Shown here: piece after piece, positions 2,975 through 58,781 of the stretch
Numbering within the stretch: position 1 is the first letter of the stretch
Layout of the letters: each line of letters begins with the position of its first letter
NCBI GenBank assembly: GCA_017527155.1
Contig: JAFXQI010000026.1
Span: forward strand, 883-64,882
DNA from: Kiritimatiellia bacterium
Lineage (GTDB): Bacteria > Verrucomicrobiota > Kiritimatiellia > CAIQIC01 > Lenti-01
Length of the DNA: 64,000 nt
Reading direction: 5' to 3'
Program-made: the position numbers and the translations under genes
The notes under the pieces: generated by a model
What the model saw: only the letters and a program-made list of their open reading frames with translations
What the model was told of the DNA's origin: nothing
Databases searched by the model: none

Positions 2975-3034
2975 CATGCAGGGGACCTTGACCGGAATCC
3001 GGGCAAATTGTCCTGTTTTCCCGTGTTTCCAAAA
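2975..3034 (-). promoter_or_regulatory. upstream-element (UE) family copy, orphan
   Basis: Minus strand reads TTTTGGAAACACGGGAAAAC ... ATTTGCC ... CCTGCATGAAC. It points antisense into the deacetylase 3' end and no credible ORF follows. Confidence 0.45.
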
Positions 3035-3508: not shown

Positions 3509-3567
3509 CGCGATATCAAGGAAAACCCAAGCGTTTTCAACCGTTTTCCACCCTGTTCCACCCCATG
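3509..3567 (+). promoter_or_regulatory. UE family copy upstream of pilin-like gene
   Basis: CGCGATATCAAGGAAAAC-N7-TTTTCA...TTTTCC...CCACCCCATGG. The GGAAAAC-to-ATG distance is 45 nt; the gene start lies 90 nt further downstream. Confidence 0.5.
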
Positions 3568-3656
3568 GAAATTACTCCGGTCTCCCGTCCCCCCACCCAC
3601 GGAAGCAGACGTTTTGCTCTTTACTCTTTCGCCCCCTCGCCGTTTAATCCCACGAC

Positions 3657-4007
3657 ATGGATCACAACCCTCCAGCATCCGGCACAACCGAGCGCCGCCG
3701 CGGCATGACCGTGGTGGAGGCGTGTCTCGTGGTGGCGTTGGTCGTTCTGGTGGGAGCGATCGCGTTGCCGGCGCTCTCCCGCAACCGGCAGCGGCGGCAG
3801 GCCGCGCGCTGCGCGCAGCACTTGGACACCCTCTCCACCGCCTGCAAGGAATACGCCGCCGCCAACGGCAGGTGGCCCACCTCCCAGGATGTCCTCGTAC
3901 CCGCCCTTCTCGACGCGCCGCTGGCCTGTCCCGCCGGCGGCACCTACTCCCTCGGCACCCCCGAGGGCGACCCGCCCACTTGTTCCATTCCCGGCCACAG
4001 CCTGTAA
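3657..4007 (+). CDS. prepilin-type N-terminal domain protein (pseudopilin-like)
   Basis: RRRGMTVVEACLVVALVVLVGAIALPAL resembles the G/FTLIE cleavage-methylation helix of type IV pilins and T2SS pseudopilins. Small 116-aa body with Cys pairs. Confidence 0.7.
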   Translation: MDHNPPASGTTERRRGMTVVEACLVVALVVLVGAIALPALSRNRQRRQAARCAQHLDTLSTACKEYAAANGRWPTSQDVLVPALLDAPLACPAGGTYSLGTPEGDPPTCSIPGHSL

Positions 4008-5436: not shown

Positions 5437-5481
5437 TCGATTGCAATCGATTGCAGTCGAGTGCATTCGATTGCAATCGAG
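5437..5481. repeat. tandem 10-nt palindromic repeat R10 (putative bidirectional terminator)
   Basis: TCGA(TTGCAATCGA)(TTGCAGTCGA)(GTGCATTCGA)(TTGCAATCGA)G. TGCAATCGATTGCA is a perfect palindrome. Lies 42 nt after the frr stop, with T-runs on both sides. Confidence 0.7.
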
Positions 5482-6855: not shown

Positions 6856-6915
6856 TTTTGGAAATACGAAAAACATTGAATTATACCCCTGTTTTCCCCC
6901 ATGGTCCCCTCCATG
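6856..6915 (+). promoter_or_regulatory. UE family copy, orphan (only a dubious 68-codon ORF follows)
   Basis: TTTTGGAAATACGAAAAAC...TTTTCCCCCATGGTCCCCTCCATGAAAAAC. It also reads as TTGGAA-17 nt-TTATAC (sigma70-like). Confidence 0.45.
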
Positions 6916-7364: not shown

Positions 7365-7372
7365 TCGTGTGC

Positions 7373-9046
7373 ATGAAAACCCGCTTTCCTTCCATTCTCC
7401 ACCTGGCTCTGGCCTGCCTGTTCGCGTTCCTTTCCCCGGCCGCCCCCGCGCAGGACGGCATCTATGCCGATTTCGCCACCGCCCGCGGCACCTTCACCGC
7501 CCGCCTCGACTTCGAGCGTGCGCCCAAGGCCGTCGCCGCCTTCGTCGGCCTCGCCACCGGCGAAAAGAACTGGCTCGATCCCTTCGGCAACGTCCACGCC
7601 GCCACCCCCTTCTACGACGGGACCCTCTTCCACCGCGTCCTCCCCGGACTCGCCATCCAGGGGGGCGGCCTCCCCTCCCCCGCCGACGTCTGGGTTCCGG
7701 CCAACTACGGCCCCGCCACCCTCGCCGCCCCCATCGACCTCCCCCTCCTGACCACCAACCTCCCGCCCGGAGTCTCCACCATCCGCCTCGGTACCGCCAC
7801 CCTCGCCGTCACCTCCGCCCCGGCCATCCCGCTGACCGTCATGCGCGCGGGCGAACCCCTGGAATTCATCCAGACGAACCGCACCCGCGTGACCGCCTGG
7901 ATGGTTTCCACGTCCGCCGGCCCGACCGGCACCGTCGTGCAGTCCAACCTCTGCCTCGACACCTGGCTGGCCAACGCCACCACCCAGGCCCTCGCCACCA
8001 ATCTCGCCGTCCGCTTCGATCTGCGCCTGACGAATTCGGAGGCCACCCCGGCCCCGTTCACCATCTCGGGCTTCCATGCCTGGAGCGCGACCAACGTCCT
8101 CGCGCGGCATAGCGTCGCCACCAACTTCGCCAACGCCGGCTTCTACTTCCCCGACAACGTCACCAACGGACTCCGCCACGTCCCCGGAACCCTTTCCATG
8201 GCCCGCTCTCTCCCGAACACCGACGGCTCCCAGTTCTTCGTCTGCGTCGCCACCAACACCGCCTGGGACGGCAACTACACCGTCTTCGGCCACGTCGTCG
8301 CCGGTCTCGATGTCGTCGAAGCCATCGCATCCGTTCCCGTGGATGCCGGAAACAACGACCGGCCCCTCGACGACCAGGTCCTGGAGCGGGTGACGATCCG
8401 CCGCGTCGGCGCCGCCGCCGGAGCATTCGACATCCACGCCCAGGGCCTTCCCCGCGTGGACAACGTCCCCCTCCGGCTGGACTTTCCCACCAACGGCCTC
8501 GACGTGACGCTCGACATCCCCGCCCGGTCCGAGATCCTGTTCCGCTGGAACACCGATCTCGCACGCCAGGGCTGGGGCGCCTGGGAAACGAACGATCTCG
8601 GCTATTTCACCAATGCCCTTTCGGCCCCCCTGACGCTCCGGACCCCGGTCTCCCGCCTCTTCTGCCACGCCTCCTCCGTCACCTACCCCATCCCCTGGAC
8701 CCTCCCCGCGACCCACCGCGGACGGACCTTCGTCTTCCGCTGGACCAACACCGCCCCCGAGACCGCCGAAACCCTCCGCTTCCCGTCCTCCTGGATCCAG
8801 AAAGGCGCGTGGACGCGCGTCTCCGGGACCAATGCCGCCTCGGGCGAAATCTTCGTCGGCTACGACCAGTGGACGCGCTTCCCCTACTCCGCGGCCTTTT
8901 CCTTCTGGGACAGCCAATTCACCCACGCCTACCAGCTCCGCATGGACCCCGGCGCCACCACCGGCACCTTCACCGGCCGCCTCTCCCCCCTCCTCGACTC
9001 TTCGACCGTCTACGCCCTCTCCGGCACCTTCACCGTCTCCCCCTGA
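7373..9046 (+). CDS. secreted cyclophilin-type peptidyl-prolyl isomerase with large internal insertion and C-terminal extension
   Basis: Signal peptide. FYDGTLFHRVLPGLAIQGGG ... [~155 aa] ... GTLSMARSLPNTDGSQFFVCVATNTAWDGNYTVFGHVVAGLDVVEAI. Followed by ~210 further residues of unknown fold. Confidence 0.8.
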   Translation: MKTRFPSILHLALACLFAFLSPAAPAQDGIYADFATARGTFTARLDFERAPKAVAAFVGLATGEKNWLDPFGNVHAATPFYDGTLFHRVLPGLAIQGGGLPSPADVWVPANYGPATLAAPIDLPLLTTNLPPGVSTIRLGTATLAVTSAPAIPLTVMRAGEPLEFIQTNRTRVTAWMVSTSAGPTGTVVQSNLCLDTWLANATTQALATNLAVRFDLRLTNSEATPAPFTISGFHAWSATNVLARHSVATNFANAGFYFPDNVTNGLRHVPGTLSMARSLPNTDGSQFFVCVATNTAWDGNYTVFGHVVAGLDVVEAIASVPVDAGNNDRPLDDQVLERVTIRRVGAAAGAFDIHAQGLPRVDNVPLRLDFPTNGLDVTLDIPARSEILFRWNTDLARQGWGAWETNDLGYFTNALSAPLTLRTPVSRLFCHASSVTYPIPWTLPATHRGRTFVFRWTNTAPETAETLRFPSSWIQKGAWTRVSGTNAASGEIFVGYDQWTRFPYSAAFSFWDSQFTHAYQLRMDPGATTGTFTGRLSPLLDSSTVYALSGTFTVSP

Positions 9047-9068: not shown

Positions 9069-9204
9069 GTTTTCCAACCATTGGAAAAAAGTTCCCGCCG
9101 TTTTCCAATGATTGGAAAAATTTTTGCCGTTTTTTCCAATGATTGGAAAATATTTTTCCAATGGTTGGAAAATTCCGCGGATTTTTTCCAATGGTTGGAA
9201 AATG
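9069..9204 (-). repeat. AT-rich palindrome array A (5 copies, inverted relative to arrays B/C/D)
   Basis: Five TTTTCCAA-N3-TTGGAAAA units centred at 9079, 9110, 9141, 9163 and 9193. The spacing 31-31-22-30 mirrors arrays C and D. Confidence 0.9.
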
Positions 9205-9811: not shown

Positions 9812-9830
9812 GGGGGGATTTCTTTCTTTT

Positions 9831-9872
9831 CGAGTGCAATCGAGTGCAGTCGAGTGCAGTCGATTGCAATCG
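9831..9872. repeat. tandem 10-nt palindromic repeat R10
   Basis: (CGAGTGCAAT)(CGAGTGCAGT)(CGAGTGCAGT)(CGATTGCAAT)CG. Lies 7 nt downstream of the stop of the 851-aa gene (minus strand). Confidence 0.7.
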
Positions 9873-12447: not shown

Positions 12448-15400
12448 CTATTCCGCCGCCAGCACCGTCCAGAACTTCGCCGGGCCGTCGAGCGGCACCG
12501 TCGCCTCCGTCCCTTCCACGCGCTGGAGGAAGGTGAACCCTTCGGCCAGGTTCGTCGAAACGTAGATGTCGTACCGGCGCACCGCGCGCGCGCCGTCCGG
12601 CGCCGCGTCCTCCCAGGCGGTCTTCACGCCGCCCGCGCCGTCGCCTTCCACCGCGGTGATGCGCACGCCGCAGGCGGCGGACATCGCGGCGAGGGTTTCG
12701 GCATCGACCAACACGCCGGCGGGCGGGGTCGCGGAGGCGAGGACTTCGAGGTCGAAGCTCGCCTCGGTCCAGAGCCCCTGCGCGTCGGTGGCGCGCACGC
12801 GGATGCGCCGCACCGCGGCGTCGGCGGCCCGGAAGGACGCCGCCGCGCGCACGGTCGCGCCGCTCAGCTCGACGAGCGCGTTGTCGTCCGCGCCTTCGCC
12901 GTCCGCCAGCGAGTACGTCACCTCGTCGCCCGCGTCGGCGTCGACCGCGCTCAGCAACCCGATGTAGGCGCCGACGGCGTTGTTCTCGCGGATGGACCGG
13001 CTGCTCAGCGAGATGGCGCTCGGCGCGCTCGCCGCGGCGGTGCGCCCGCTCGCCTCGACCCACGCCGAGGCGTGGCCCCAGGCGTCGACGGAGCGGACGT
13101 GGACGTAGTAGGCCGTGTTCATGTCCAGCCCCTTCGCCGTCGCGGTGGCCGTGGCTTCCTCCTCGACCGCGTCCGCCAGCGGCGCCGGTACGGGTTCGAG
13201 CGCGATCGCCGTCTCCGCGCCGTAGTCGGGCGCGGGCGCGCCAACGGTCTGCAGCGTGACGTTGCGGACGCCGTTGCCGTATCCGCTCCAGAGGCTGCTG
13301 GTCGTCGCGTCGGGAACGCCCAGTTCCAGCGCCACGCCGTCCACCAGCGCGACCGCGGGCAGGTCGATGTGGAGATAATTGTTGTTGTTGATGTAGATGC
13401 TGTTGGTGGTGACGCGGCCGGCCTCGGTCCAGGCGCCGCCCGGCACCTTGTAGTACAGCACGATGGGCTTGCCCGTCTCGCCGTTGTCGCCGCCGCGCGT
13501 GCGCGCCACGAAACGCAGGGTCGCACTTTCGCAGCCGGAGAGGTCGAGCGCCGGCGACTGGATGCCCGGCGCGGGCGCGACCACCAGCCCGTGGTAGTCC
13601 CAGTCGGTGTTGGTCGTCGCGCAAATCCAGTTGCTGGAGACCTGCACGTGGTTCGCGCTGTAGAACCAGCCGCTCTTGTTCGCGCTGCCGCTGAGGTTCA
13701 CGTTCGGCACCGACTCGAGGTCCTTCGGCGTCCCCGCCGCCACCACCGGCGTGAGCTGGACCTCGAAGTGGTCCACCAGCCCCGGGTCGGTCCACGTCGC
13801 GGTCAGTTCCGTCGAGCTGGCCGTCGCGACGGAGAGGCCCGTCGGGGCGGGGACGGTGTCTTCGGTCTTGCGGTGGCCGTAGCCGACGTCGACCCACTCG
13901 CCGTTCACGTTCGCGCGGACGTGCCACCAGTACGGTTCGCCGGCGGGCAGGTTCTGGACCTGGATGTTCGTCACGTTCACGTACCGCGGATAGCCTTCCA
14001 GATGCACGTTCGCGTCCGCGAACTCGCCCTGCCCGTACAGGCTGGCCGTCGCCGTCGTCACGTACGGCCCGCGCTGGTAGCTGTCGCGCCAGGCGTTCGG
14101 CGCTTCCAGCTTGAAAGCGACCGTGGCCGCGCCCTCGGGCATGAAGACGAGCTCGCCCCAGTAATTCGTTTCCCCGCCGTCGCCCGTCGCCTTCGACTGG
14201 TTGTAGCCGATGAACTGCCACTCGCCGCCGTCCACGCGGTAGTAGGCGTCCACGCGCGACACCGCCGCGGTGCCCTTGCCGTTCCAGTTGGCGTTCTGGA
14301 AGTCGATGGCCACCGCCGACGCGCCCAGCAGCGGCAGGTCCCGCGTGACCAACGCAACGCCGTTCGTGCCGAAGAGGCCGTGCGCGTTCGTCGTCCCGTA
14401 GGTGAACCAGCACGGCGAAGTCTTCACACTGCCTTCCGTCGTCGTCGTCGCCCCGCCCGGCGCCTCGTAGCGCCAGTACTGTCCGTCGAGGAACTGGTTC
14501 GTGCCGAGCGACCGGTTCGGCGTCGTGTAGATGGAATCCGTCGAGCCCGCCGACACGTCCACCTCATAATAATCCGCCCCCGGCACCGCCGCCCACGACA
14601 GGTTGAGCCACGCGTCGCCCGTCTCCTGCGCGGGCGTGCGCTCGTCCACGTCGATGACATCGATGGTGAACGCCTCGTCAGTGTAAGCCCCGTTTCCGTC
14701 GCTCGCGCGGATGCGGCAGAAATGCTGCGGATATTGCTCGTAGTCGAACACCTGCGCCGTCTTGAGCTTGTTGCCCTCGATGGAGAAGCAGGCGTTGCCC
14801 GTGTCGCCGTCGCCCGCCACCAGCGCGTACGTCAGCGCGTCGCCGTCCTCGTCGTAGGCGCTCAACGTGCCCACCACCGTCCCGATGGGCGCGTTCTCCT
14901 CCACGCTCGCGTTGCTGAGCGACAGCCCGCTCGGCGCGTGGTTGCTCTCCGACGCTGTCAGGTAGGTGCCGCTCACCTGGCGCGTCACGGCCTTGGTCGC
15001 CGTGAAGGTCACGTCCTTGGGCTTGGTGTACTCGCTGATGCTCTTGAAATTGACCGTGTAGCTGCGCCCCGGAACCAGCGCCGGGAGCCGCACCCCCGTC
15101 CGCTGCCACGGACTCGTCTCGCCCGTCACGTTGTCCACCAGCCGCCACGCCGCGCCCGCCGACACCGCGGCGGCCGGCTGGCAGTAGCCGCGCACCTGCG
15201 TGAGCAGCACCGCCTTCACCGCGTCCATCGTCACCGGCACGTCGAGGTAGCTCGCGTGGTCCACCTGCTGGCCGTCCATGGCGTTGAGGTTGAACTTCGC
15301 CGCCGTCGGGTGCGCGTTGCGGTCGCTGGCCTTCGCGCAGGAGAGCGAGTCGCTCATCAGCGCGGAAATCAGCGGGACCAGCCCGTCGTTGTCGCCCACG

Positions 15401-17945: not shown

Positions 17946-18890
17946 TCAGCCCCTGTCTTCCGTTTCCGCCGTGTCCTCGGCCACCAGGTACAGCGGCCGC
18001 CCCTTCCCCTCTTCGTAGATGCGGCTGACGTACTGTCCCAGCAGACCGATGCTCACCAGCTGCGCCCCACCCAGGAACACCACCACCGCGATGATCGACG
18101 CCCAGCCTTTTTCCAGCGTCTCGGGGCGGAATATCGCCGTCCAGATCACGTACAGCGTCCACACCCCCGCCACCGCGCACACCCCCACGCCGAAGAGCGC
18201 GATCCACCGCAGAGGCGACGCGCTGAAGGACGTGATGGCGTCGAACGCCAGCTTGGCGCTCTTCCACACCGGGTACTTCGTCTCCCCCGCGAACCGCGCC
18301 GCCCGGTCGTATTCCACCGCCGCCTGCTTGTACCCCACCCAGCACGTCAGGCCGCGCATGAAGCGGTGCAGCTCGCGCATCTTCTTGAGCGAGTCCACCA
18401 CCCGGCGGCTCACCAACCGGAAATCCCCCGCATCCATCGGCACCTCCACCTTCGCCAGGCGGTGGAACACCCGGTAGAACCCCGCCGCCAGGAACTTCTT
18501 CATCCACGTCTCCCCCCTGCGGCTCCGGCGAACGGCGTAGACCACGTCCGCCCCGCCCTCCCACGCCGCGATCAGCTCGGGAATCACTTCCGGCGGGTCC
18601 TGCAAATCGGCGTCCATGACGACCACCGCGTCGCCGACGGCCCGGTCCAGCCCTGCCGTGATGGCGTACTGGTGACCGAAATTCCGCGACAGGCGGACCA
18701 CCCGCAGGTGCGGCTCCTCCCGGGTCCTGGCCACGGCCCACTCCGCACTGCCGTCGGTCGAGCCGTCGTCCACGAGCAGCAGCTCCCAGTCCTCCGGGCG
18801 CGCCGCGAACACGGCCGCCACCCGCGCCACCAGCTCCGGCAGCGACTCCTTCTCGTCCAAAAATGGCACCACGACCGATATCGTCTTCAT
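17946..18890 (-). CDS. family 2 glycosyltransferase (polyprenyl-phosphate sugar transferase, GtrB/DPM1-like)
   Basis: MKTISVVVPFLDEKESL...LLLVDDGSTDGS...VVMDADLQDPPE, plus two C-terminal TM helices. Confidence 0.88.
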   Translation of the reverse strand: MKTISVVVPFLDEKESLPELVARVAAVFAARPEDWELLLVDDGSTDGSAEWAVARTREEPHLRVVRLSRNFGHQYAITAGLDRAVGDAVVVMDADLQDPPEVIPELIAAWEGGADVVYAVRRSRRGETWMKKFLAAGFYRVFHRLAKVEVPMDAGDFRLVSRRVVDSLKKMRELHRFMRGLTCWVGYKQAAVEYDRAARFAGETKYPVWKSAKLAFDAITSFSASPLRWIALFGVGVCAVAGVWTLYVIWTAIFRPETLEKGWASIIAVVVFLGGAQLVSIGLLGQYVSRIYEEGKGRPLYLVAEDTAETEDRG

Positions 18891-18958
18891 GCCCCCATCC
18901 CCTACCACATCCCCCGCCCGCCTTCAATCCCGCGCTTCGCCCTGCGCGCCTCCCCCGC

Positions 18959-19020
18959 TTTTGGAAACAGGAAAAATCCCTGCATTTTCCCCCTCTTCCA
19001 CCCCATCCTCCACGACCATG
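18959..19020 (+). promoter_or_regulatory. UE family copy upstream of pseudopilin-like gene
   Basis: TTTTGGAAACAGGAAAAAT-N7-ATTTTCC...CCACGACCATGAAC; the gene ATG lies 69 nt further downstream. Confidence 0.5.
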
Positions 19021-20235: not shown

Positions 20236-20270
20236 TCGACTGCAATCGAGTGCAATCGACTGCAATCGAT
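20236..20270. repeat. tandem 10-nt palindromic repeat R10
   Basis: TCGAC TGCAA TCGAG TGCAA TCGAC TGCAA TCGAT, between convergent stops at 20192 (+) and 20310 (-). Confidence 0.7.
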
Positions 20271-20309: not shown

Positions 20310-23300
20310 TCACAAATCCAGCAGTTCCTGGACGTCCTGCCAGGTCATTTCCGGCAGGGTGAGCGGGCCGCTGGTGGCGTCGAGGGTGGCGTCGTAGAGG
20401 CGCTGCTTCTTGCGCTGGAGGGCCAGGACGCGCTCCTCGACGGTGTCCTGGGCGATGAGCTTGACGCTGTAGACGGTGCGCTTCTGCCCGATGCGGTAGG
20501 CGCGGTCGGTCGCCTGGTTCTCCACGGCCGGGTTCCACCACGGATCGAAGTGGATGACCATGTCGGCGCCCGTCAGGTTCAACCCCGTGCCGCCCGCCTT
20601 GAGGCTGATGAGGAAGACCGGTATCGACGCGTCCTGGTTGAACTGCCGCACGATGTCGAGGCGGTTCTGCGTGGATCCGTCGAGGTAGCAGTACCGCAGC
20701 CCCCGCCGCTCCAGCGCCTCCCGCAGGATCGTCAGCATGGACACGAACTGCGAGAAGACGAGCACCCGGTGCCCGCCGTCGACCGCTTCGTCCAGCAGCT
20801 CGAAGAAGAGGTCCATCTTGGCCGACGGCTCCGCGCTGTCGAGGCCTTCGAGCTTGAGCAGGCCGAGATGGCAGCAGACCTGCCGCAGGCGCAGCAGCGT
20901 GTTGAGGATCTCGAACTTGCTCTTGCGGAAGCCCTGGCCGGCGACGAGTTCGGCGACCTTGCGCTGCGACTCTTCGAGGAGGGCGGCGTAGACCTTCTTC
21001 TGGTCGTTGGTGAGGGGGCATACGGCGACGCGCTCGATCTTGGGCGGCAGCTCCTTCGCGACGTCCTTCTTGAGCCGCCGCAGCAGGAACGGCTGCAGCT
21101 TGCGGTGGAGCCGCCACTGGGCGAGTTCGCCTTCGGGACCGCCCTGCTGGATGGGCTGCTCGACGTTGGCCCGGAACAGGACGTGGTCCCCGAGGTAGCC
21201 GGGCATGAGGAAATCCATGATGGACCAGAGGTCGCTGACGCCGTTCTCGATGGGCGTGCCGGTCAGCACCAGCCGGTGGACGGCGCGGACGCGCTTGGCG
21301 GCGAGGGAGTTCTGGGTGGAGCGGTTCTTGATGTGCTGGGCCTCGTCGAGGACGGCGGCGGCGAACTCGATGGTTTCCCATTTGTCGATGTCGCGGCGCA
21401 GCAGCGCGTACGACGTGATGGCGACGTCGCATCCGGGAATCTCCGCCCACCGCGCGTGCCGGTCGGCGCCGGTCATGACGCACAGGCGCAGGTCCGGCGT
21501 GAAGCGCGCGGCCTCGGCGGCCCAGTTCTCGACGAGGCTGGTGGGGCATACGATGAGCGCGGGCTTGTGCCCGCTGCCGCCGCTCCCGCCCTTGAGCAGC
21601 ATGGAGAGCCACACGAGCGTCTGCAAGGTCTTGCCGAGGCCCATTTCGTCGGCGAGGATGCCGCCGAAGCGGTTGCGTTCGAGATAGCGGAGCCAGCGGA
21701 CGCCGTCCTTCTGGTAGGGGCGCAGCAGCGTCTCGAAGCGGGCCTCCAGGGGCGCGGGCTCGGCCGGGGCGAGGCGGCGGTTGGCGCGGTCGGCCTCGCG
21801 GAGCCAGTCCGGCGGCGCCTCGATGTCGACGCCGTCGAGCGCGCGCAGGGTGCTCGCGACGTAGGCCGAATAGACGGGCGCGAGACGGAAGCTCCCCGGC
21901 CGCCGCCCCGGTCCCGACGCGCAGTCGCCGAACACGCTCTGCAGCGCGTGGATGGCTTCGCCGTCGATGAGCACCGGCCGCCCGTCCTTCTCGACGTAGG
22001 AGTCGCCGACCAGCAGCGCCCGCTGGATCTCCGCCGGGGCCAGCCCGACGCCGTTCGCGTCGTAATCGAAGCGCACCTCGAACCAGCCCTGGCCGCCCGC
22101 CACCGGATCGATGTGCACCACCGGCGTCGCGTACACCGCCTCGTCCGCCAGCGGCGCGATCCGCCCCTCGAACTCCACCCGCCACCCCTGCCGCCGCAGG
22201 TGCGGGACCGCGCGGCCGAGGAAATTCGTGACTTCCCGCGTCCCGACGACCGCCGGCAGGTCGTCCCCCGGCGTCGCGCGCAGGCCGAAGGCGGCGAGCG
22301 AATCGCGCGCCTGGAACTCCGCGGGCAGGTTCCGCACCGTGTAGCGGAGCAGGTCGTCCGGGTCGGGATGCGCGAACGACCCGCGCGGCGCCGGACGCCC
22401 CGCCGGGACCTCCAGATCCCCGTACACCGCCACCAGCGACGGCGCCAGGCTCGCCGGACTCCCCTTCAGCCGCAGGCAGAACTTCGGCGTCTCCGGCTCG
22501 AACGCGAACAGCTCCGCCTCCACCTCCGCCGCCACCGGCAGCAGCACCTTCAGCCGCGGCAGCTCCTCGCGCACGAAGCGCGGCACCATCGGCCGCGGAA
22601 TCCGCACGTCCCGGCGGTAGATTTCCCAGTACGGCTCCGGCAGCACCTTCGCCAGCGGACGGAACCGGCCGCCCGCGAACACCCATCCCGCCTTCCCCGC
22701 CGTCCAGTACGCCGGACGCTCCCCCTCCCGCGCCCCCGGCACCGGCGTGTCCAGCTTCAGCAGCAGCTCCCCCGTATCGTGATCCAGATCCACCCGCAGC
22801 GTGCTCGCCGCCGCCTCCGCCTCCACCGGCCACTCCCCGCCGCCCGGCGACCGCACCGACCGCCCGCGCAGCAGGCCCAGGATGTTCATGAAGTCCGCCG
22901 CCTTCATCTCCAGCCGGTCCGGCAGCTTCGCCGCCGCGATCTCCTCCAGCACGAACAGCAGATCCTCGTCCGCCTGCGACACCCCCAGCGTCACCGACCG
23001 CGGGAAATCCGCCACCGACCGCCTCTCCGCGCCGCGCACCAGCCGGATCCCCACCGGCGTCGTCCCCGCCGCCGCCCGCCGCGCCTCCCAGTCGCCCTCC
23101 ATCGATATCTCCACCCCGCACGGCACCGCCCCCGGCGTCCCCGGCCGCGCGCAGGTGAAGAACTCGTGCGCCTCCTCCCGCTGCTTCACCGCCGCCGCGT
23201 GGCGCTGCTCCTCCAGCACCTTGCGGTCGTGTTCCGGGTCCGTGTTCCGCACCACCAGCGCCATCCCCAGCGCGATCACGTGCGAGCAGATGATGCCCCT

Positions 23301-23507
23301 CTCCACGTTGTCCCGGCACGGACACCGGTTGTCGCACGACCCGTCCGGAAGGATCTTCGCCGCCGTCTTGATGGTCCGCGTCCCCCACGTGATGGTCCCC
23401 CGTATGAACGGCGGCTCGTACACGCCCCCCTGGACCTGGCCGTGCTCGAAGAGGAGCCGGGCGTCGCGGAAAACCGACGGCCCGCCCCAGTCCTGGAGCG
23501 TTTTCAT
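20310..23507 (-). CDS. SNF2-family helicase with N-terminal SWIM zinc finger
   Basis: SWIM CPCRDNVERGIICSHVIAL. ILADEMGLGKTLQTL, LDEAQHIKN, LTGTPIEN, FLISLKAGGTGLNLTGADMVIHFDPWWNPAVENQATDRAYRIGQ. Start at ATG 23507 (MKTLQDW). Confidence 0.92.
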   Translation of the reverse strand: MKTLQDWGGPSVFRDARLLFEHGQVQGGVYEPPFIRGTITWGTRTIKTAAKILPDGSCDNRCPCRDNVERGIICSHVIALGMALVVRNTDPEHDRKVLEEQRHAAAVKQREEAHEFFTCARPGTPGAVPCGVEISMEGDWEARRAAAGTTPVGIRLVRGAERRSVADFPRSVTLGVSQADEDLLFVLEEIAAAKLPDRLEMKAADFMNILGLLRGRSVRSPGGGEWPVEAEAAASTLRVDLDHDTGELLLKLDTPVPGAREGERPAYWTAGKAGWVFAGGRFRPLAKVLPEPYWEIYRRDVRIPRPMVPRFVREELPRLKVLLPVAAEVEAELFAFEPETPKFCLRLKGSPASLAPSLVAVYGDLEVPAGRPAPRGSFAHPDPDDLLRYTVRNLPAEFQARDSLAAFGLRATPGDDLPAVVGTREVTNFLGRAVPHLRRQGWRVEFEGRIAPLADEAVYATPVVHIDPVAGGQGWFEVRFDYDANGVGLAPAEIQRALLVGDSYVEKDGRPVLIDGEAIHALQSVFGDCASGPGRRPGSFRLAPVYSAYVASTLRALDGVDIEAPPDWLREADRANRRLAPAEPAPLEARFETLLRPYQKDGVRWLRYLERNRFGGILADEMGLGKTLQTLVWLSMLLKGGSGGSGHKPALIVCPTSLVENWAAEAARFTPDLRLCVMTGADRHARWAEIPGCDVAITSYALLRRDIDKWETIEFAAAVLDEAQHIKNRSTQNSLAAKRVRAVHRLVLTGTPIENGVSDLWSIMDFLMPGYLGDHVLFRANVEQPIQQGGPEGELAQWRLHRKLQPFLLRRLKKDVAKELPPKIERVAVCPLTNDQKKVYAALLEESQRKVAELVAGQGFRKSKFEILNTLLRLRQVCCHLGLLKLEGLDSAEPSAKMDLFFELLDEAVDGGHRVLVFSQFVSMLTILREALERRGLRYCYLDGSTQNRLDIVRQFNQDASIPVFLISLKAGGTGLNLTGADMVIHFDPWWNPAVENQATDRAYRIGQKRTVYSVKLIAQDTVEERVLALQRKKQRLYDATLDATSGPLTLPEMTWQDVQELLDL

Positions 23508-23609
23508 GGTGAAAGGCAGTTTCAAGCGCAATCCATTCCTGCCGCAAACCCGCGGCAAGCCAAAACGCCAAGATACCCCACCCCCACCCCGGATTCAAGC
23601 GCGGAAGTT

Positions 23610-23667
23610 CATGGGCCGGACGGCGGCGGAAAACACGGGAATTCCCCGCATTTCCCTTGATATCCCG
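23610..23667 (-). promoter_or_regulatory. UE family copy upstream of SNF2 helicase gene
   Basis: Minus strand reads CGGGATATCAAGGGAAAT-N7-ATTCCC...TTTTCC...GGCCCATGAAC; the gene ATG lies ~100 nt downstream. Confidence 0.5.
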
Positions 23668-24872: not shown

Positions 24873-24932
24873 TTTTGGAAACAGGAAAAATACTTGACTT
24901 TCCTCCATCCCGCCCCCATGCTCCCCTCCATG
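24873..24932 (+). promoter_or_regulatory. UE family copy whose ATGAA box is the start codon of P-family gene 1
   Basis: TTTTGGAAACAGGAAAAAT...CTTTCC...CCCCTCCATGAACAAC; ATG 24930 begins MNNKVKY. Confidence 0.5.
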
Positions 24933-25898
24933 AACAACAAGGTCAAATACGCCCTCCGCGAGGCCGCCGGGATTGCCGGCGACGTCGCGCGCGCCTACAC
25001 CATCCCCCTGGCCCTCCCCGTGGTCGTGCCGGTCGTCGCCGCCCTCTCCGCGACCGCGCTCGCGGGCTGGCTCGCCGACACCGCCGGCCGCGCCATCCTC
25101 TCCGAGCTGCGCCGCCGGGCCCGCCTCCGGGCACCGCGCCCGCCCTCCCCGTCGCTGCGCGGAACCCCGACGCCGGAGGAGTTCGCCGCCGACGCGGCGG
25201 AACGCCCCCGCACGCTGTCGGTGCGCCTGCGGATCGGCTCGCGCCTGGCGGACCTCGCACCGACCCTCGACCGCGGCAATCTCTACGACATCTCCCCGAC
25301 GGGCGCCAGACGCATCCGCGGCCGCGGCCGCGGCGTCCGCGGCTGGCTGGCCGACAACCGCGTCGCGATGAACTACTCGACCCTCATGCGCTACATGCGC
25401 CTCGCCGTCCGCCTCCGCGCCCTGCTGTCCTTGGACGAACGCATCCCGCTGGAGTGGCTGCTGCCCGGCGCGGCGCCCTCCGCGGAAGTGCCGCCGGCCC
25501 TGCGAATGCACTGCGCATCGGCGAAGCGCCGTCTCGCGCGCCTTATGCGCGCGCATTGGAATTTCAGCCGCCTGCAAGGACACGTGGACGAAGCGCTCGG
25601 CCTGCGGCGCCTGCCGCGTCCCGACCGCCCCAACGGCAAGCCCCTCGACGCCATCCTGGCGGAAAACGTCCGGCGCGAGCTGGCGGATTTCCTGCATGCA
25701 CGCGACCTGTCCCCGGAGCAGGAAGCCTTGCGCCAGGCGGCTCTGGCCGGCTTCCCGGCACCCCGGCCGGGCCCCGGCGCTCGCGACGCCCCGATGGAGA
25801 CTTGTCCGGCGGGGACGGGGTGTGGTATACAGGACGGAAATGCATCGGCGGGAAATGGTATCCGGGCCGGTGCGATGGAAGGAACTCGTTTCGCATGA
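24930..25898 (+). CDS. P-family protein 1: membrane-anchored Arg-rich protein of unknown function
   Basis: One N-terminal TM helix. The ~110-aa core is conserved with 61603-62580 (RLRIGSRLADLAPTLD, YSTLMRYMRLAVRLRAL, ERIPLEWLLP). Stop overlaps the next ATG (ATGA at 25895-25898). Alternative start at 24918. Confidence 0.65.
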   Translation: MNNKVKYALREAAGIAGDVARAYTIPLALPVVVPVVAALSATALAGWLADTAGRAILSELRRRARLRAPRPPSPSLRGTPTPEEFAADAAERPRTLSVRLRIGSRLADLAPTLDRGNLYDISPTGARRIRGRGRGVRGWLADNRVAMNYSTLMRYMRLAVRLRALLSLDERIPLEWLLPGAAPSAEVPPALRMHCASAKRRLARLMRAHWNFSRLQGHVDEALGLRRLPRPDRPNGKPLDAILAENVRRELADFLHARDLSPEQEALRQAALAGFPAPRPGPGARDAPMETCPAGTGCGIQDGNASAGNGIRAGAMEGTRFA

Positions 25899-29834: not shown

Positions 29835-30608
29835 TCAGAACATCTTCTCGAAGGAGTCGGTGAAGGTCACGCCGGGGAAGAACGACCCGGCGTCGAACAT
29901 CGCGTCGGGGATCGGGGCGGTCGCGGAGAGATTGTCGAGCCGGACCGTCTCCGAGCGCACGGCGCCGTCCATCGAAAGGTCGAGCTGCTGCCGCCGGGCG
30001 AGCCAGACGCCGGGCGCGACTTCCGCGAAATCCTCCATCGCGGCGAGCAGCAGGCGGTCGGCCATCGCTTCCGAGGCGTACATTTCGAGGCGGGTCCAGC
30101 GGCCGCCGGCGTCGAAGGAGAGGACGGCATAGGCCTTGCCCGGCCGGGTGCAGGCGATGCGGCGGGCGGCGGCGCCGTCGGGCGGGAGTTCCGTCTCGGG
30201 GAGGTCGCGGAAGGGTTCGAGCCAGCTGGAGTTGGAGCCGGGGAGCATGCGGAGGTTCACCAGCGCGTCGCCTTCGAGTTCCGCGACGGGGCGGGCGAAG
30301 CCGCGCGGGAGCCCTTCGGTGTACTGGCGGAGGGTCGTGCCGTCGCAGACGGTGCGGCGCTTCATCGGCGACAGGTTCTCCGCGTGCAGGCGGTCGGGAC
30401 GGCGGAACCAGATGCGCGAGAGGAAGCGCACCGTCTCGCCGTCCGCCCCCCGCACGTCGCGGCGGAGTTCGCAGGAGAGCTGCGGGACCGAGGCGTAGCC
30501 GTCGAGGAGCGCGCGCACGGTCTCCCCCGCCCGCGCGGCGGACGGCAGGACGAGGAGCGCGGCCGCGAGGGCGGCGGCGGCGGGGAGCGGGAATCTGGAT
30601 GCGGTCAT
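29835..30608 (-). CDS. periplasmic LolA-like / outer-membrane lipoprotein-sorting fold protein (tentative)
   Basis: GGAGG RBS then ATG 30608. Signal peptide MTASRFPLPAAAALAAALLVLPSAARA. The size and beta-rich pattern fit LolA/DUF4367-type proteins, but no diagnostic motif was seen. Confidence 0.45.
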   Translation of the reverse strand: MTASRFPLPAAAALAAALLVLPSAARAGETVRALLDGYASVPQLSCELRRDVRGADGETVRFLSRIWFRRPDRLHAENLSPMKRRTVCDGTTLRQYTEGLPRGFARPVAELEGDALVNLRMLPGSNSSWLEPFRDLPETELPPDGAAARRIACTRPGKAYAVLSFDAGGRWTRLEMYASEAMADRLLLAAMEDFAEVAPGVWLARRQQLDLSMDGAVRSETVRLDNLSATAPIPDAMFDAGSFFPGVTFTDSFEKMF

Positions 30609-30690
30609 GGCGGGTTCCTCCAAGGTCGGTTTCCCGGCAGTAAAGCACAAGCCGGGCTCCCCGCCAATGGCGGAATCGGGGGCGTGCGTT

Positions 30691-30746
30691 CATGGAGGGG
30701 AGGATGGGGGAAAACGGGCGGTTTCCGGGCGGTTTTCCGTAATCTC
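30691..30746 (-). promoter_or_regulatory. UE family copy upstream of LolA-like gene
   Basis: Minus strand reads GAGATTACGGAAAAC...TTTTCCCCCATCCTCCCCTCCATGAAC; the gene ATG lies 83 nt downstream. Confidence 0.5.
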
Positions 30747-30820
30747 GAAACGGGTCCGGCCGGGGCGGGCGCCGGTTCGGGCTGGCCAAGGGACGGCAAA
30801 GGGCGTACAGTTCCCGGCCC

Positions 30821-31960
30821 ATGAACTACTGCAACGGATCATGGGTGGAAGTGGACCTCCGGCGCCTGCGCCGCAACGTGGAATCGATCCAGCGCGGCCT
30901 CGGCCGCACGACGATGATCGCCGTCGTCAAGTCGGACGCCTACGGCCACGGCCTGGTCGGCATGGCCCGCGGCCTGCGCGACGCCGGCGTGCGGAACTTC
31001 GCCGTCGCCTACCCCGCCGAGGCCGAAACCGTCCGCCGGGAAGTCCCCGACGCCGAACGCATCGTCGTGCTCGGCGTCGCGACGCCCGACGACGTCCCCC
31101 TCCTGCTGCGCGACCGCATCACGCCCGTGGTCGTCTCCCTCGACCAGGCCCGCGCGCTCTCCGCCGCCGCCCTCGCCGCCGGGGCCCGCCTCCGCGCCCA
31201 CCTCAAGCTCGATACCGGGATGGGGCGGCTCGGCTTCGTATGCCCCGCCGACGTCCCCGCCGCCGCCGAAGCCCTCCGCGAGCCCGGACTCGACATCGAA
31301 GGCGCCTGCATGCACTTCGCCATCGTCGAACCCGTCCGCCACCCCGAGGCCGCCGCCGGGCAGGCCGCGAAGTTCGACGCCGCGCTGGAAGTGCTCGAAG
31401 CGGCCGCCGGGCGCCGTCTCTTCCGGCACATGTCCAGCAGCCGCGCGGCGCTCCTGATGCCGGAATGCGACCAGGACGCCGTGCGCGTCGGCATCTCCCT
31501 CTACGGCTACGGCAGCGCCCGTCCCGACGGCCGGTTCGCGACCGAGCCGATCCTGCAGTGGAAGTCGCGCGTGATGCAGGTCAAGAGCGTGCCCGCCGGC
31601 TTCCCGGTCGGCTACTACGGCGCCTACGTCACCGACCGCCCCACCGACATCGCGGTCGTCTCCTGCGGCTACACCGACGGCTACCTCCGCCTCCTCGGCA
31701 ACACGGGCGACGTGCTGGTCCGCGGCAAGCGCCGCCGGGTCGCCGGCCGCGTGAGCATGAACTGGCTCACCGTCGATCTCGGCCCGGACAGCGGCGTGCA
31801 GGCCGGCGACGAAGTGGTGCTGCTGGGCGAACAGGGCGGCGAAGCGGTATGGGCCGACGAACTCGCGCGCCACTGCGAGACGATCGCCTACGAAATCCTG
31901 ACCGACATCTCCCGGCAGATCGAGCGCCGCTACGTCGGGCAGCCGCACGAGACCGTTTGA
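30821..31960 (+). CDS. alr: alanine racemase
   Basis: AVVKSDAYGHG PLP-lysine motif; the C-terminal beta-domain pattern is also present. Confidence 0.93.
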   Translation: MNYCNGSWVEVDLRRLRRNVESIQRGLGRTTMIAVVKSDAYGHGLVGMARGLRDAGVRNFAVAYPAEAETVRREVPDAERIVVLGVATPDDVPLLLRDRITPVVVSLDQARALSAAALAAGARLRAHLKLDTGMGRLGFVCPADVPAAAEALREPGLDIEGACMHFAIVEPVRHPEAAAGQAAKFDAALEVLEAAAGRRLFRHMSSSRAALLMPECDQDAVRVGISLYGYGSARPDGRFATEPILQWKSRVMQVKSVPAGFPVGYYGAYVTDRPTDIAVVSCGYTDGYLRLLGNTGDVLVRGKRRRVAGRVSMNWLTVDLGPDSGVQAGDEVVLLGEQGGEAVWADELARHCETIAYEILTDISRQIERRYVGQPHETV

Positions 31961-34695: not shown

Positions 34696-34820
34696 TTTTC
34701 CAACGATTGGAAAAAAACTTTCCAATCATTGGAAAAACCGGCGCGAATTTTCCAACCATTGGAAAAATATTTTCCAATCATTGGAAAACCGCCGAAAAAT
34801 TTTTCCAATCGTTGGAAAAC
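34696..34820 (+). repeat. AT-rich palindrome array B (5 copies)
   Basis: Units centred at 34705, 34727, 34757, 34779 and 34810 (spacing 22-30-22-31). Long identical runs shared with array C. Confidence 0.9.
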
Positions 34821-35717: not shown

Positions 35718-35751
35718 AAAAAGGGATGGAGGGCGCGTCCAGGGGCGGAAA

Positions 35752-35910
35752 AATTTTCCAACCATTGGAAAAAAAGTTTCCAATCATTGGAAAAACCGGC
35801 GCGAATTTTCCAACCATTGGAAAAATATTTTCCAATCATTGGAAAAAACCGGAAAATTTTTTCCAATCATTGGAAAACCGGCGAAAAATTTTTCCAATCG
35901 TTGGAAAACT
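35752..35910 (+). repeat. AT-rich palindrome array C (6 copies)
   Basis: Units centred at 35763, 35785, 35815, 35837, 35868 and 35899 (spacing 22-30-22-31-31). Confidence 0.9.
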
Positions 35911-38460: not shown

Positions 38461-38540
38461 TGAAAGGGTGAAAGGTTGAGGGAGTACGTTGAAGGGCCAT
38501 TCTTCGACTTTTCAACCTTTCGACTTTTCAACCTTTCACC
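38461..38540. repeat. hairpin with 8-nt micro-tandem arms, copy 1
   Basis: TGAAAGGGTGAAAGGTTGAGGG...GTTGAAGGG, loop, TCTTCGAC TTTTCAAC CTTTCGAC TTTTCAAC CTTTCACC. Confidence 0.75.
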
Positions 38541-39837: not shown

Positions 39838-39878
39838 GAGATTACGGAAAACATTGGGCTTTTCGCTTGTTTTCCGCT
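39838..39878 (+). promoter_or_regulatory. UE family copy (5' half) upstream of RND gene
   Basis: GAGATTACGGAAAAC-N7-TTTTCG...TTTTCC. No ATGAA box; it is followed by the large 8-nt-unit hairpin. Confidence 0.4.
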
Positions 39879-39930
39879 TTCCAGGCGCCCCGCGGGCCTC
39901 CCGCCCGCGCCCCGACTGCACATCCGCGAA

Positions 39931-40070
39931 GGGTTGAAAGGTTGAAGGGGTGAAAGGTTGAAGGGTTGAAGGGTTGAGGGAATGGGCCGTCCTTCATCTT
40001 TTCAACCTTTCCACCTTTCAACCTTTCAACTTTTCAACCTTTCAACCTTTCAACCTTTCAACCTTTCACC
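39931..40070. repeat. large asymmetric hairpin with 8-nt micro-tandem arms, copy 2
   Basis: Left arm has ~6 units of GTTGAAGG/GTTGAAAG (39931-39980). Right arm has 10 units of CTTTCAAC (39991-40070). Ends 110 nt upstream of the RND start. Confidence 0.85.
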
Positions 40071-49233: not shown

Positions 49234-49292
49234 TTTGGAAACAGGAAAAATCCGCCATTTTCCCGCCATTTCACACCATCTCCATCGCCATG
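49234..49292 (+). promoter_or_regulatory. UE family copy, orphan, followed directly by an R10 repeat
   Basis: TTTGGAAACAGGAAAAAT...ATTTTCC...CATCGCCATGAAAAA. No credible ORF follows; the R10 repeat starts 27 nt later. Confidence 0.45.
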
Positions 49293-49318: not shown

Positions 49319-49361
49319 TCGATTGCAGTCGAGAGCAGTCGAGAGCAATCGAATGCAGTCG
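49319..49361. repeat. tandem 10-nt palindromic repeat R10
   Basis: TC(GATTGCAGTC)(GAGAGCAGTC)(GAGAGCAATC)(GAATGCAGTC)G, between convergent stops at 49186 (+) and 49383 (-). Confidence 0.7.
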
Positions 49362-49382: not shown

Positions 49383-50423
49383 TCAGTCGAACCGGATCCG
49401 CGGGTCGATGAGGAGGTAGCACAAATCCGACAGCAACCGCCCCAGCAACCCCAGCACCGACGTCACGGCCAGAATCCCCATGAAGACCATGTAGTCGCGG
49501 CTGACGATGGCGTCGAGGCTGAGCCGCCCCATGCCGGGAATCTCGAACACATTCTCGATCAGCACCGATCCGGCGAACAGCACGCCCAGCACGCCGCCGA
49601 ACCCCGTCGCGACCGGAATCAGCGCGTTGCGCAGCGCGTGGCCCCAGATGGCGCGGCGGAGGCTGCCGCCCTTGGCGAGGACGGTGCGGACGTAGTCCTG
49701 GCCGATCTGCTCCAGCAGCGAGTTCTTGGTCAGCAGCGTCAGCACCGCGAAATTGCCGATGACGTAGCAGCACACCGGCAGCACGAAATGCGCGGCGCTG
49801 TCCTTGAACTGCCCCCACGGCGACATCATCGCGTGGTCCACGGACACGACCCCCGCCGCCGGCAGGATGTCCCAGAATCCTTCGCCGCCGCCCGCGAAAA
49901 GCATCTTGAGCAGCATCCCGAACGCGAACGCGGGGATCGCATACCCCACGAACACGACCAAGCTGCTCGCCGCGTCGAACGCGCTCCCGTGCCGCAGGGC
50001 CTTGGCGATGCCGAGCGGGATGCAGACGAGGTATGTCAGGAAGAACCCGCTCAGCCCGAACACGAGCGACACGCGGAAGCGGCTGCGGACCAGCTCCCAC
50101 ACCGTCTTGTTGGGGTATTTCCAGGACCGCGCCGCGAGCCCCATCCGGTCGCGCACGAGCCAGTTCCAGTACCGCACCGGCAGCGGCTTGTCGAACCCGA
50201 AGTGCGCCTCCAGCGCCTTCCGCTGCTCGGGCGAGACGGCGGCCCCCGACCGCGGTCCGCGGCTGCCGCCCTCTCCCGCACCCAGCCCCCGCATCTGCGC
50301 GATTGCCTGCTCGACCGGACCGCCCGGCACCATCTGGCACAGCGCAAAGCACGCGATGGTGATTCCGAGGAAGGTCGGCACCATCAGCAGCAGCCGGCGG
50401 ACCAGATAGGCGAGGCGTTCCAT
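49383..50423 (-). CDS. ABC transporter permease (oligopeptide/YejB-like, binding-protein-dependent family)
   Basis: MERLAYLVRRLLLMVPTFLGITIACFAL, long periplasmic loop, EQIGQDYVRTVLAKG EAA-type loop. Confidence 0.85.
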   Translation of the reverse strand: MERLAYLVRRLLLMVPTFLGITIACFALCQMVPGGPVEQAIAQMRGLGAGEGGSRGPRSGAAVSPEQRKALEAHFGFDKPLPVRYWNWLVRDRMGLAARSWKYPNKTVWELVRSRFRVSLVFGLSGFFLTYLVCIPLGIAKALRHGSAFDAASSLVVFVGYAIPAFAFGMLLKMLFAGGGEGFWDILPAAGVVSVDHAMMSPWGQFKDSAAHFVLPVCCYVIGNFAVLTLLTKNSLLEQIGQDYVRTVLAKGGSLRRAIWGHALRNALIPVATGFGGVLGVLFAGSVLIENVFEIPGMGRLSLDAIVSRDYMVFMGILAVTSVLGLLGRLLSDLCYLLIDPRIRFD

Positions 50424-52388: not shown

Positions 52389-52399
52389 CGGCTGGAAAC

Positions 52400-58715: not shown

Positions 58716-58781
58716 AACATTTACGGCTTCCTCCCCGGCCGTTCCCGGACGGACGGGCCACACCGGCCGTTGCCGGAAAAG

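Follow-up and report, generated by a model that had tools for sequence, protein, structure and literature searches.

A recurrent intergenic cassette ending in an invariant ATG is a probable lineage-specific promoter in rumen Kiritimatiellae

A DNA cassette of about 65 bp that ends in an invariant ATG recurs about every 5 kb in the chromosome of an uncultured bacterium from the ruminant gut, and we consider it, with an estimated probability of roughly 60%, to be a lineage-specific promoter of a subclade of rumen Kiritimatiellae. Its sequence suggests that the promoter is probably of the sigma-70 type, combined upstream with a site that is UP-like or binds an activator, and that transcription probably starts at the invariant ATG. 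Kiritimatiellae are abundant, almost uncultured degraders of polysaccharides in gut and sediment, and to our knowledge nothing is known about their transcription signalling; our literature searches on the cassette returned no description of it. The DNA analyzed (the window, 64 kb at 68% GC) is part of a 105.9-kb scaffold from a ruminant gut metagenome (ENA ERZ28653664, scaffold XIEF21-1_SAMN15830041_METAG-scaffold_551). It is ordinary chromosome with pyrH, frr, secA, alr, two tRNAs, an RND pump and many pilin-like genes, and homologs of its proteins are named Kiritimatiellae or Kiritimatiellia at NCBI.

An earlier note, made from the letters of the window alone, had listed 13 copies of the cassette on the two strands. 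All 13 were confirmed, aligning over about 65 nt (Table 1). A profile built from them and run against the 64-kb window with nhmmer recovered exactly these copies with E values of 5e-15 to 2e-9; the next match, at 6e-4, was the palindromic reverse of the copy at 23610. Sub-profiles of the 5' and 3' halves detected no additional weak copies in the window, which indicates that the cassettes are a discrete family and not the tail of a general signal. Twelve of the 13 copies are intergenic, though intergenic DNA makes up 17.5% of the window (binomial P = 9e-9). Three further copies are located beyond the window on the same scaffold (L120:12541-12614 and 14761-14825, both on the minus strand, and 18516-18584 on the plus strand), giving 16 on the available part of the scaffold.

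True copies were also found in the species-representative genome RUG11196 and on six metagenome contigs (64-69% GC). The former was the only real result of a scan of genome contigs with the 17-mer TTGGAAACAGGAAAAAT, nearly all matches being chance occurrences in AT-rich genomes, and the latter came from a metagenome scan with a 41-bit pattern for the class-1 cassette, in which six of 10 loci were real. Three scans of viral contigs, one for each of the three cassette classes, gave chance matches in low-GC contigs only and nothing related. Further loci at graded distance were collected from contigs with homologs of SecA or of the P family (a group of conserved proteins encoded directly downstream of some copies) and from exact matches to the Frr and DUF3127 proteins of the window. 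The window, the rest of the scaffold and related genomes together provided a profile set of 29 distinct full copies representing about 23 independent loci. The share of transcription units with a cassette is about 10% up to roughly one in four.

Table 1. Cassette copies in the window and the parts of the index copy.
Feature	Position	Strand	Context
Index copy, class-1 box	18959-19020	+	Followed by a pilin-like gene (start 19089) that has its own SD
Index copy, box TTTTGGAAACA	18959-18969		
Index copy, GGAAAAAT	18970-18977		
Index copy, -35-like CTGCAT	18980-18985		
Index copy, TTTTCC	18985-18990		
Index copy, -10-like CATCCT	19004-19009		18-bp spacer
Index copy, C-rich discriminator	19010-19017		
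Index copy, ATG	19018-19020		Opens a 5-codon ORF, MNDTP and stop
Class-1-like copy (TTTTGGAAACACGGGAAAAC)	2975-3034	-	Orphan facing the 3' end of a convergent polysaccharide-deacetylase-like gene (1989-2930, +)
Class-2 copy (CGCGATATCAAGGAAAAC)	3509-3567	+	Upstream of pilin-like/pyrH/frr operon, true gene start 3657
Class-1 copy, TTGAAT-18-CATGGT	6856-6915	+	454 nt upstream of cyclophilin-type PPIase gene (7367-9046)
Class-2 copy, central GGGGAATTCCC palindrome	23610-23667	-	81-87 nt upstream of SNF2 helicase gene (20310-23531, -); ATG opens a 5-codon ORF, MNFRA and stop
Class-1 copy, TTGACT-17-CATGCT-7-ATG	24873-24932	+	P-family paralog 1 (24930-25898) begins with the ATG at 24930
Class-3 copy, GAGATTACGGAAAAC-N16-GTTTTCC inverted repeat, CCCCCATCCT	30691-30746	-	70 nt upstream of gene for a secreted 262-aa protein (29835-30623, -)
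Class-3 5' half copy, GGAAAAC-N16-GTTTTCC	39838-39878	+	About 300 nt upstream of RND-OEP fusion transporter gene (40180-44763)
Class-1 copy	49234-49292	+	Orphan in convergent intergenic region
Class-2 copy	53792-53850	-	274-328 nt upstream of gene for a secreted ~270-aa protein (52699-53520, -)
Class-3 copy	58660-58715	+	282 nt upstream of GT4 glycosyltransferase gene (58995-60140)
Class-2 copy, TTGATT-17-TATCCT-7-ATG	61547-61605	+	P-family paralog 2 (61603-62580) begins with the ATG at 61603
Class-2 5' half copy	62360-62402	-	Antisense inside P-family gene 2

With the A of the ATG counted as +1, the 29-copy profile opens with a T-run at -57 to -54, followed by a class-specific box at about -53 to -46 (TTTTGGAAACA, CGCGATATCAA or GAGATTAC; the upstream A/T-rich region is counted from -58) and by GGAAAAY at -45 to -39. 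The three 5' box versions of the earlier note stand, but they do not always end in GGAAAAY, as GGGAAAC or GAAAAAC is sometimes found. The spacing from GGAAAAY to the ATG is near-fixed as proposed; the value of 44-48 nt is corrected to 45 nt (first G to A of the ATG) in 18 of the 29 copies, with a range of 42-47. Many copies have (c)aTTGACa directly after GGAAAAY, and a TTGACA-like hexamer is present in about half. A TTTYCC box after GGAAAAY had also been described; it occurs in most copies but is not universal, and it is matched in frequency by a second box, GTTTTCC, some 10 nt downstream. The two boxes appear in the profile as T-tracts at -31 to -29 and -21 to -18. They are followed by a C-run at -17 to -13, by CATnnT at -13 to -8 (A at -12 in 15, T at -11 in 17 and T at -8 in 18 of 29 copies), and by a C-rich, G-poor stretch of 7-9 nt between CATnCT and the ATG. 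The impression of a C-rich, almost G-free spacer was borne out: G accounts for about 9% of the bases between -30 and -1, where some 34% would be expected. Positions -1 to +5 read C-ATG-(A/G)-A without exception.

The 5' module (box, GGAAAAY, N16 and GTTTTCC) is gap-free, forms an inverted repeat in class-2 and class-3 copies, and is found alone at 39838, at L136:19206, and in antisense orientation in P-family gene 2 and its orthologs. The copies at 39838 and 62360 had been classified as 5' halves, and both indeed lack the C-run and the ATGAA. At another locus, L137:6067-6136, two class-3 boxes make up a full palindrome. The combination GGAAAAY-N5-10-TTTYCC occurs seven times against 0.04 expected, and four of the seven are not in a cassette but inside palindrome arrays of the form TTTTCCAA-N3-TTGGAAAA. 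These arrays have a half-site in common with the cassette, as had been noticed earlier.

Hexamers resembling -35 and -10 elements are located 17-18 bp apart in the cassette, and their mean score of 7.43 was above that of every shuffle (5.95 +/- 0.24). The best pairs are TTGACA-18-TACACT, TTGACT-17-CATGCT, TTGATT-17-TATCCT and TTGACG-18-CATTCT. In about half the copies the -35 match is at most 3/6, and in most copies the -10 element matches TATAAT at only 2-3 of six positions. A simple consensus promoter scan of the region from 18 to 32 kb recovered only the tRNA-Leu promoter; it missed the cassettes because their hexamers are too weak for such a scan. Ordinary promoters of cassette-free genes in the window (tRNA-Leu, tRNA-Met, secA, and the genes at 28256, 32285 and 45548) have TTGACA-17-TAnnnT in G-rich surroundings, and that of tRNA-Leu carries a T-run and CGGAAAGGGCA immediately 5' of its -35 element TTGACG. 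The information in the cassette totals about 67 bits, with 28 in the box and GGAAAAY, 13 in CCATGAA and about 14 in the two hexamer regions. Since most of the information is outside the hexamers, an additional factor is implied; together with the solitary and inverted-repeat 5' modules, this points to a putative specific binder of GGAAAAC-type sites at these promoters.

Several other assignments were tried and rejected. With a sigma-32 promoter (CTTGAAA...CCCCAT), the T of the -10 element would be displaced by one position; the close relative L140 has a sigma-54-type promoter (TGGCACG-N4-CTGCTT) at dnaK, and thus no heat-shock reference promoter was at hand for comparison. On inspection, an SD and ATG on the G-rich reverse strand yielded no conserved peptide, and GTTCAT on that strand, taken as a -35 element, had no -10 partner.

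As the earlier note had proposed, the cassette ATG is the start codon of the two P-family genes at 24930 and 61603, and the family alignment is conserved from M1. The same holds for eight of the 29 copies, which fall in three paralog groups; the three groups present on the scaffold have 37-40% identity. Several of these genes had been mis-called from upstream ATGs. They have no SD, and nAnnnT is found 7-8 nt upstream of their start codon. The alr gene (30821, +), divergent from the copy at 30691, is organized alike and has its own promoter, TACAGT-9-ATGAAC. Because an SD-like motif is present in 26 of the 47 genes on the scaffold but not in the P family, and because the N-terminus of the family is conserved from M1, a leaderless start is plausible. 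We conclude that P-family mRNAs are probably leaderless, with a 5' end that would coincide with the start codon.

The P-family proteins contain no Pfam domain, and the predicted structure (pLDDT 74) gave no PDB fold match (best E 0.5) and no clue to DNA binding. One Logan contig was tried as a possible transcript; it is genomic and continues for 122 nt on the upstream side of the ATG. The 5' half copy at 62360 falls in a variable linker of the protein that is predicted to be disordered (residues 248-277), at a position that is kept in the orthologs of L133, L136 and L137. We also considered that the P-family gene might be an IS-like unit bounded by its upstream copy and this internal antisense copy, and rejected the idea: the ORF runs 57 codons past the internal copy with a conserved C-terminus, and the other paralogs have no internal copy.

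The remaining copies are more varied in what lies downstream. In addition to the eight P-family starts, the 29-copy set comprises 13 copies with a co-oriented gene 70-700 nt downstream, seven orphans, and one copy at a contig end; 21 of the 28 assessable copies therefore lead toward a gene start or are one. That real genes start downstream of the other copies was correct, but the distances extend beyond the 70-330 nt given before. These genes have unrelated functions and encode pilin-like proteins, PPIase, SNF2 helicase, secreted proteins, GT4, an AMP-binding enzyme, aconitase and, in a relative, SecA. Among the copies in tandem intergenic regions, six of seven aim at the downstream gene, and four of the six divergent regions contain a copy. 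The secA gene, divergent from the copy at 53792, has a promoter of its own (TTGTCA-18-TAGGAT). In the leadered copies the ORFs that begin at the ATG are either 5-67 codons in length or long, out of frame and negative in coding score; in four copies the long ones run across or toward the next gene.

At the seven orphans (five loci) the gene ahead is convergent and presents its 3' end, and a hairpin is found 10-45 nt after the ATG. Downstream of the copy at 49234, for instance, a hairpin of 10-nt periodic palindromic repeats (49325-49361) begins after 35 nt, and next comes an ABC permease gene (49383-50423, -), 3' end first. The region downstream of the GlgB orphan was compared for a conserved sRNA in four genomes, all of which are very close relatives.

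Conservation among relatives is concentrated in the motifs. P-family orthologs in four genomes (59-74% amino-acid identity) are in different neighbourhoods, and their promoters keep GCGATAYC, GGAAAAY, CTTGCAT/CTTGATT, (C/T/A)ATCnT and the ATG, with a spacer of 17-18 bp that is constant in length and unrelated in sequence. Motifs that are kept while the spacer diverges are the footprint expected of a promoter. In strains of the same species every orthologous copy is kept, and substitutions are mostly between GGAAAAY and the -10 element. Identity within and between box classes is 0.82 and 0.46 in the box but equal elsewhere (0.45-0.52), which argues for constraint on motifs and against shared descent of whole copies. 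Since the classes differ in the box only, the boxes appear to be interchangeable modules and not markers of three lineages of copies.

Individual copies come and go between relatives. The copy at 3509 is species-specific and missing in the related loci L146, L147, L150 and L151, which have the CTTTAC-18-TTTAAT promoter in common with the window. In the window this conserved promoter of the pilin-like/pyrH/frr operon (about 3625-3654) lies between the copy and the gene start at 3657. In L140 (SecA 97% identical in amino acids and 93% in nucleotides), a class-1 copy that the window does not have is located upstream of secA, and the GT4 intergenic region contains four TTTTCCAATCATTGGAAAA palindromes in place of the class-3 copy of the window. 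No copy was found in 23 kb from each of two relatives with SecA identities of 85% and 81%.

Taken together, the intergenic location, the orientation mostly toward genes, and a hexamer fit that exceeds shuffles and places the ATG at +1 speak for a promoter. Against it are the weak -35 and -10 elements of many copies, the orphans, and the 5' half copies without a -10 element and ATG. The promoter module suggested in the earlier note is the best supported reading overall, but its version as the promoter of the next gene fails for about one-third of the loci. The separate promoter of the pyrH/frr operon argues against that version, and so do the array-type palindrome (58777-58803) and GC hairpins, which separate the copy at 58660 from the GT4 gene. 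The assignment of the ATG as +1 is weakened by the distance of 7-9 nt from the -10 element, about 1-2 nt longer than typical, and by the four long out-of-frame ORFs, which would be costly if translated.

In the mechanism that we propose, the three interchangeable A/T-rich boxes (-58 to -46) would be bound by alpha-CTD or by a transcription factor, and GGAAAAY would occupy the position of a UP-element proximal subsite or of a class-I activator site. A TTGACA-like -35 element would follow, then a 17-18-bp spacer with one or two TTTTCC tracts, the weak -10 element CATnCT after the C-run, and a C-rich discriminator of 7-9 nt. RNA polymerase would initiate at the A of C-ATG-AA, provided that the promoters are active. 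At P-family genes the product would be a leaderless transcript with the 5' AUG as start codon. At other genes it would be a leadered mRNA opening with a short or out-of-frame ORF, or the cassette would act as a second, upstream promoter; orphans would produce a short or antisense transcript.

A different main function is possible, albeit doubtful: the cassette could be an operator, at which a protein that binds GGAAAAC half-sites and the class box represses or activates all cassette-bearing units as one regulon. The GGAAAAC-N16-GTTTTCC inverted repeat flanks the -35 element and is strict, at N16-17, in the copies at 3509, 30691, 39838, 23610 and 6856, and the two-box palindrome of L137 fits as well. 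The 28 bits of the box and GGAAAAY are far above what a UP element needs, 5' modules exist without a -10 element and ATG (39838, 62360, L136:19206), and the copy inside the P-family gene is retained within a linker that is variable and predicted to be disordered. The palindrome arrays would be recognized by this protein or by one related to it, and one array replaces a cassette in a close relative; a threefold repeat of GCGGAAAAC with an 11-bp period adjoins an integrase gene just outside the window. However, only the left half-site is nearly invariant; GTTTTCC on the right is degenerate or missing in P-family promoters and in many class-1 copies. The genes with a cassette do not share a function, no candidate regulator emerged, and an operator leaves the invariant CCATGAA at a fixed distance unexplained. 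An operator would be compatible with the promoter reading, since it concerns the purpose of the extra information. Possible to a similar degree is a network in which a putative dedicated DNA-binding protein, or three paralogs, one per box, reads GGAAAAC half-sites and wires hundreds of loci, including cassettes, 5' half modules in and outside genes, and the arrays. Every cassette would then fire a 5'-AUGAA transcript, with a leaderless mini-ORF or short RNA as an obligatory product, and the fast-evolving, multicopy P family, an orphan fold always born at this ATG, could belong to the network.

The other alternatives account for less of the pattern. Promoters of ECF (group 4) sigma factors have the consensus GGAAC/GGAAT-N16-18-CGT/GTT, which GGAAAAC...CGTTTT may resemble. 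If GGAAAAC were the -35 ('AAC') and CGTTTT(CC), about 15-16 nt downstream, the -10 element, transcription would start near the A of CCCCAT with a 12-nt C-rich, SD-less leader before the ATG, and the half copies could be complete promoters. Class-2, class-3 and half copies do share a gap-free GGAAAAC-N15-CGTTTTCC with fixed spacing. Yet P-family promoters lose box B and keep the TTGnnn and YATnnT hexamers, class-1 copies have GGAAAAAT in place of AAC, the spacing falls one nt below the typical value, and both the heterogeneous gene set and the copy number, far above that of a usual ECF regulon, make this assignment unlikely. Very unlikely, in our view, is a mobile or recently propagated repeat, MITE- or Correia-like or a 'putative mobile promoter' copied from a P-family start. 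It would account for the presence of copies that differ between close relatives (the additional secA copy and the missing GT4 copy in L140, the species-specific copy upstream of pyrH/frr), for copies at synteny breakpoints (such as 2975-3034 relative to L140), and for the restriction of ATGs that are gene starts to one paralogous family. The mobile element that the earlier note had kept as a fallback is nevertheless disfavoured by the copies themselves: those in the window are 56% identical pairwise (39-72%), none reaching 80%, and are no more similar within than between classes outside the box. Inspection of the flanks of the copies showed no terminal inverted repeats or target-site duplications, relatives differ by replacement of whole intergenic regions and not by clean insertion, and viral contigs had no match. 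A structured RNA leader, the other fallback, or a small RNA with a GGAAAA:TTTTCC hairpin core would suit the complementarity of GGAAAAY and TTTYCC and the location of copies 5' of genes, but we give it almost no weight. There was no Rfam match at gathering score (in the window, the two tRNAs only) or, for the index copy, at E <= 1. Folds are weak and differ from copy to copy (MFE -6 to -12 kcal/mol, z -2.1 to +0.15). Pairing of GGAAAA with TTTTCC is seen in 64% of cells, which does not exceed shuffles, and compensatory base changes, which the earlier note had raised as a sign of RNA structure, are absent from this helix. In addition, the 3' end of the cassette coincides with the start of three genes.

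The promoter reading can be compared with known systems. In UP elements the proximal subsite is at -45 to -39, directly upstream of the -35 element. Like the sigma-70 promoter with UP element of the E. coli rrnB P1 type, the cassette has an A-tract 5' of the putative -35 element, candidate hexamers 17-18 bp apart, a C-rich discriminator, and a predicted C(-1)A(+1) start. It differs in that its upstream part exists in three discrete conserved versions of about 28 bits, above UP elements, that ATGAA is invariant, that the -10 element is CATnCT after a C-run, and that the genes served are not growth-related. The GGAAC -35 and CGT -10 of ECF promoters have a possible counterpart in the GGAAAAC...CGTTTT of class-2 and class-3 copies, which has a fixed spacing about 1 nt short, but not in the P family or class 1. 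In leaderless-mRNA promoters of Actinobacteria and Deinococcus the start codon follows the -10 box after a few nt (PMC3898074, PMC4007540, PMC6028130, PMC4633059), and P-family genes are alike in having a -10-like hexamer 7-9 nt before an SD-less ATG. Cassette copies would also resemble the mycobacterial situation in placing short ORFs at the 5' end of leadered transcripts. Unlike in Actinobacteria and Deinococcus, leaderless starts would be a minority class here, and the same cassette, with its ATG, also occurs at sites where no gene begins at that ATG. Putative mobile promoters (PMC3575422) similarly show related upstream sequences before non-homologous genes and turnover between relatives, but the 56% identity of the cassettes is at the level of motifs and not high over the whole length, with no sign of recent copying. 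A motif in acetogens that is activated by a TetR-family protein (PMC6873888) is also long, lineage-specific and overlaps promoters of many unrelated genes, implying a dedicated factor; its sequence is different.

For the biology of these bacteria, the cassette is a strong hint of a global factor, for which the 5' box may be used as bait, and the mis-called P-family genes illustrate its value as a handle for annotating gene starts. If the promoter reading is true, the cassette of about 67 bits would be a ready-made promoter part for genetic tools. If the leaderless starts are also real, the PVC group would join the lineages that use leaderless mRNAs for a defined class of genes.

The small pilin-like gene 5' of pyrH/frr starts at 3657 and not at 3705 or 3711 (window 3625-3660), which gives its product a prepilin-type cleavage motif in the N-terminal sequence MDHNPPASGTTERRRG|MTVVEA. 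About 9 nt 5' of this start lies a predicted promoter, CTTTAC-18-TTTAAT, that is kept in four related loci (L146, L147, L150, and L151). Because the promoter is so close, the gene looks leaderless or nearly so. Judging from sequence, two more genes that lack the putative promoter cassette (the recurrent ~65-bp element) are candidates for leaderless expression, alr and a glycosyltransferase-like gene. The dnaK gene of a close relative (L140) is preceded by a textbook sigma-54 −24/−12 element, TGGCACG-N4-CTGCTT (L140:20080-20100), rather than by a sigma-32- or sigma-70-type promoter.

A half-site of the cassette recurs in identical form beside a tyrosine-integrase gene on the window's own scaffold, about 0.9 kb ahead of the window start. 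Here GCGGAAAAC is present three times in direct orientation with an 11-bp period (L148:1955-1990), directly 5' of the Shine-Dalgarno sequence of the integrase gene.

The palindrome TTTTCCAA-YSA-TTGGAAAA forms arrays of 2-5 copies with 22/30-nt spacing. All are intergenic, in convergent as well as tandem regions, and are predicted to fold into hairpins of −13 to −25 kcal/mol; in L140 one such array fills an intergenic region that holds a copy of the cassette in the window. The arrays could be bidirectional terminators, since each hairpin is followed by the U-run of the next unit, or else they could be protein-binding arrays. Four tandem repeats of the 10-nt unit TCGAnTGCAA, in which two short palindromes, TCGA and TGCA, are combined, give long self-complementary hairpins (predicted −16 to −29 kcal/mol, z −3.7 to −7.8). 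A stop codon precedes each of them by 7-45 nt, and the hairpins look like bidirectional terminators that have no T-run.

Repeats, P-family genes and candidate leaderless genes (window positions unless a locus is named)
Feature	Position	Strand	Sequence or remark
8-nt tandem arrays	39928-39977; 40000-40068		GAAGGGTT x6; TTTCAACC x8.6
16-nt repeat related to 8-nt arrays	38503-38537		1.4 kb further upstream
Palindrome arrays	9101-9203; 34696-34819; 35749-35909; 52393-52556		
Palindrome, single unit	58777-58803		
Palindrome array, close relative	L140:14516-14631		
TCGAnTGCAA repeats	5437-5480; 9830-9872; 20236-20269; 49325-49361		
P-family paralogs	24930-25898; 61603-62580; L120:18575-19483		
alr	30800-30826 (start 30821)		TACAGT-9-ATGAAC
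Glycosyltransferase-like gene	18885-18930 (start 18891)	-	TTGAAG-17-TAGGGG-9-ATGAAG

The two 8-nt arrays are approximate inverse complements of one another. They lie directly 5' of the RND transporter gene's annotated start region and extend across it. This gene (40180-44763) is a single ORF of 1527 aa that, unusually, unites an inner-membrane with an outer-membrane component: a full AcrB-type RND domain (residues 2-1047) is followed, from residue 1144 on, by repeats of the outer-membrane efflux protein type (OEP/TolC-like).

The P-family, whose start codon is the ATG of the cassette, has three paralogs in ~80 kb, each made up of a single TM helix at the N-terminus, a core that is conserved among them (SLRGxPxPE...RLRIGSRLADLEPTLD...IPLEWLLP), and a tail rich in Arg. 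No match was found in Pfam or among PDB folds, and several database entries have a wrong start called at upstream ATGs. Between close relatives these proteins diverge much faster than SecA, and their genes are frequently located at synteny breakpoints. The family appears to be confined to Kiritimatiellae.
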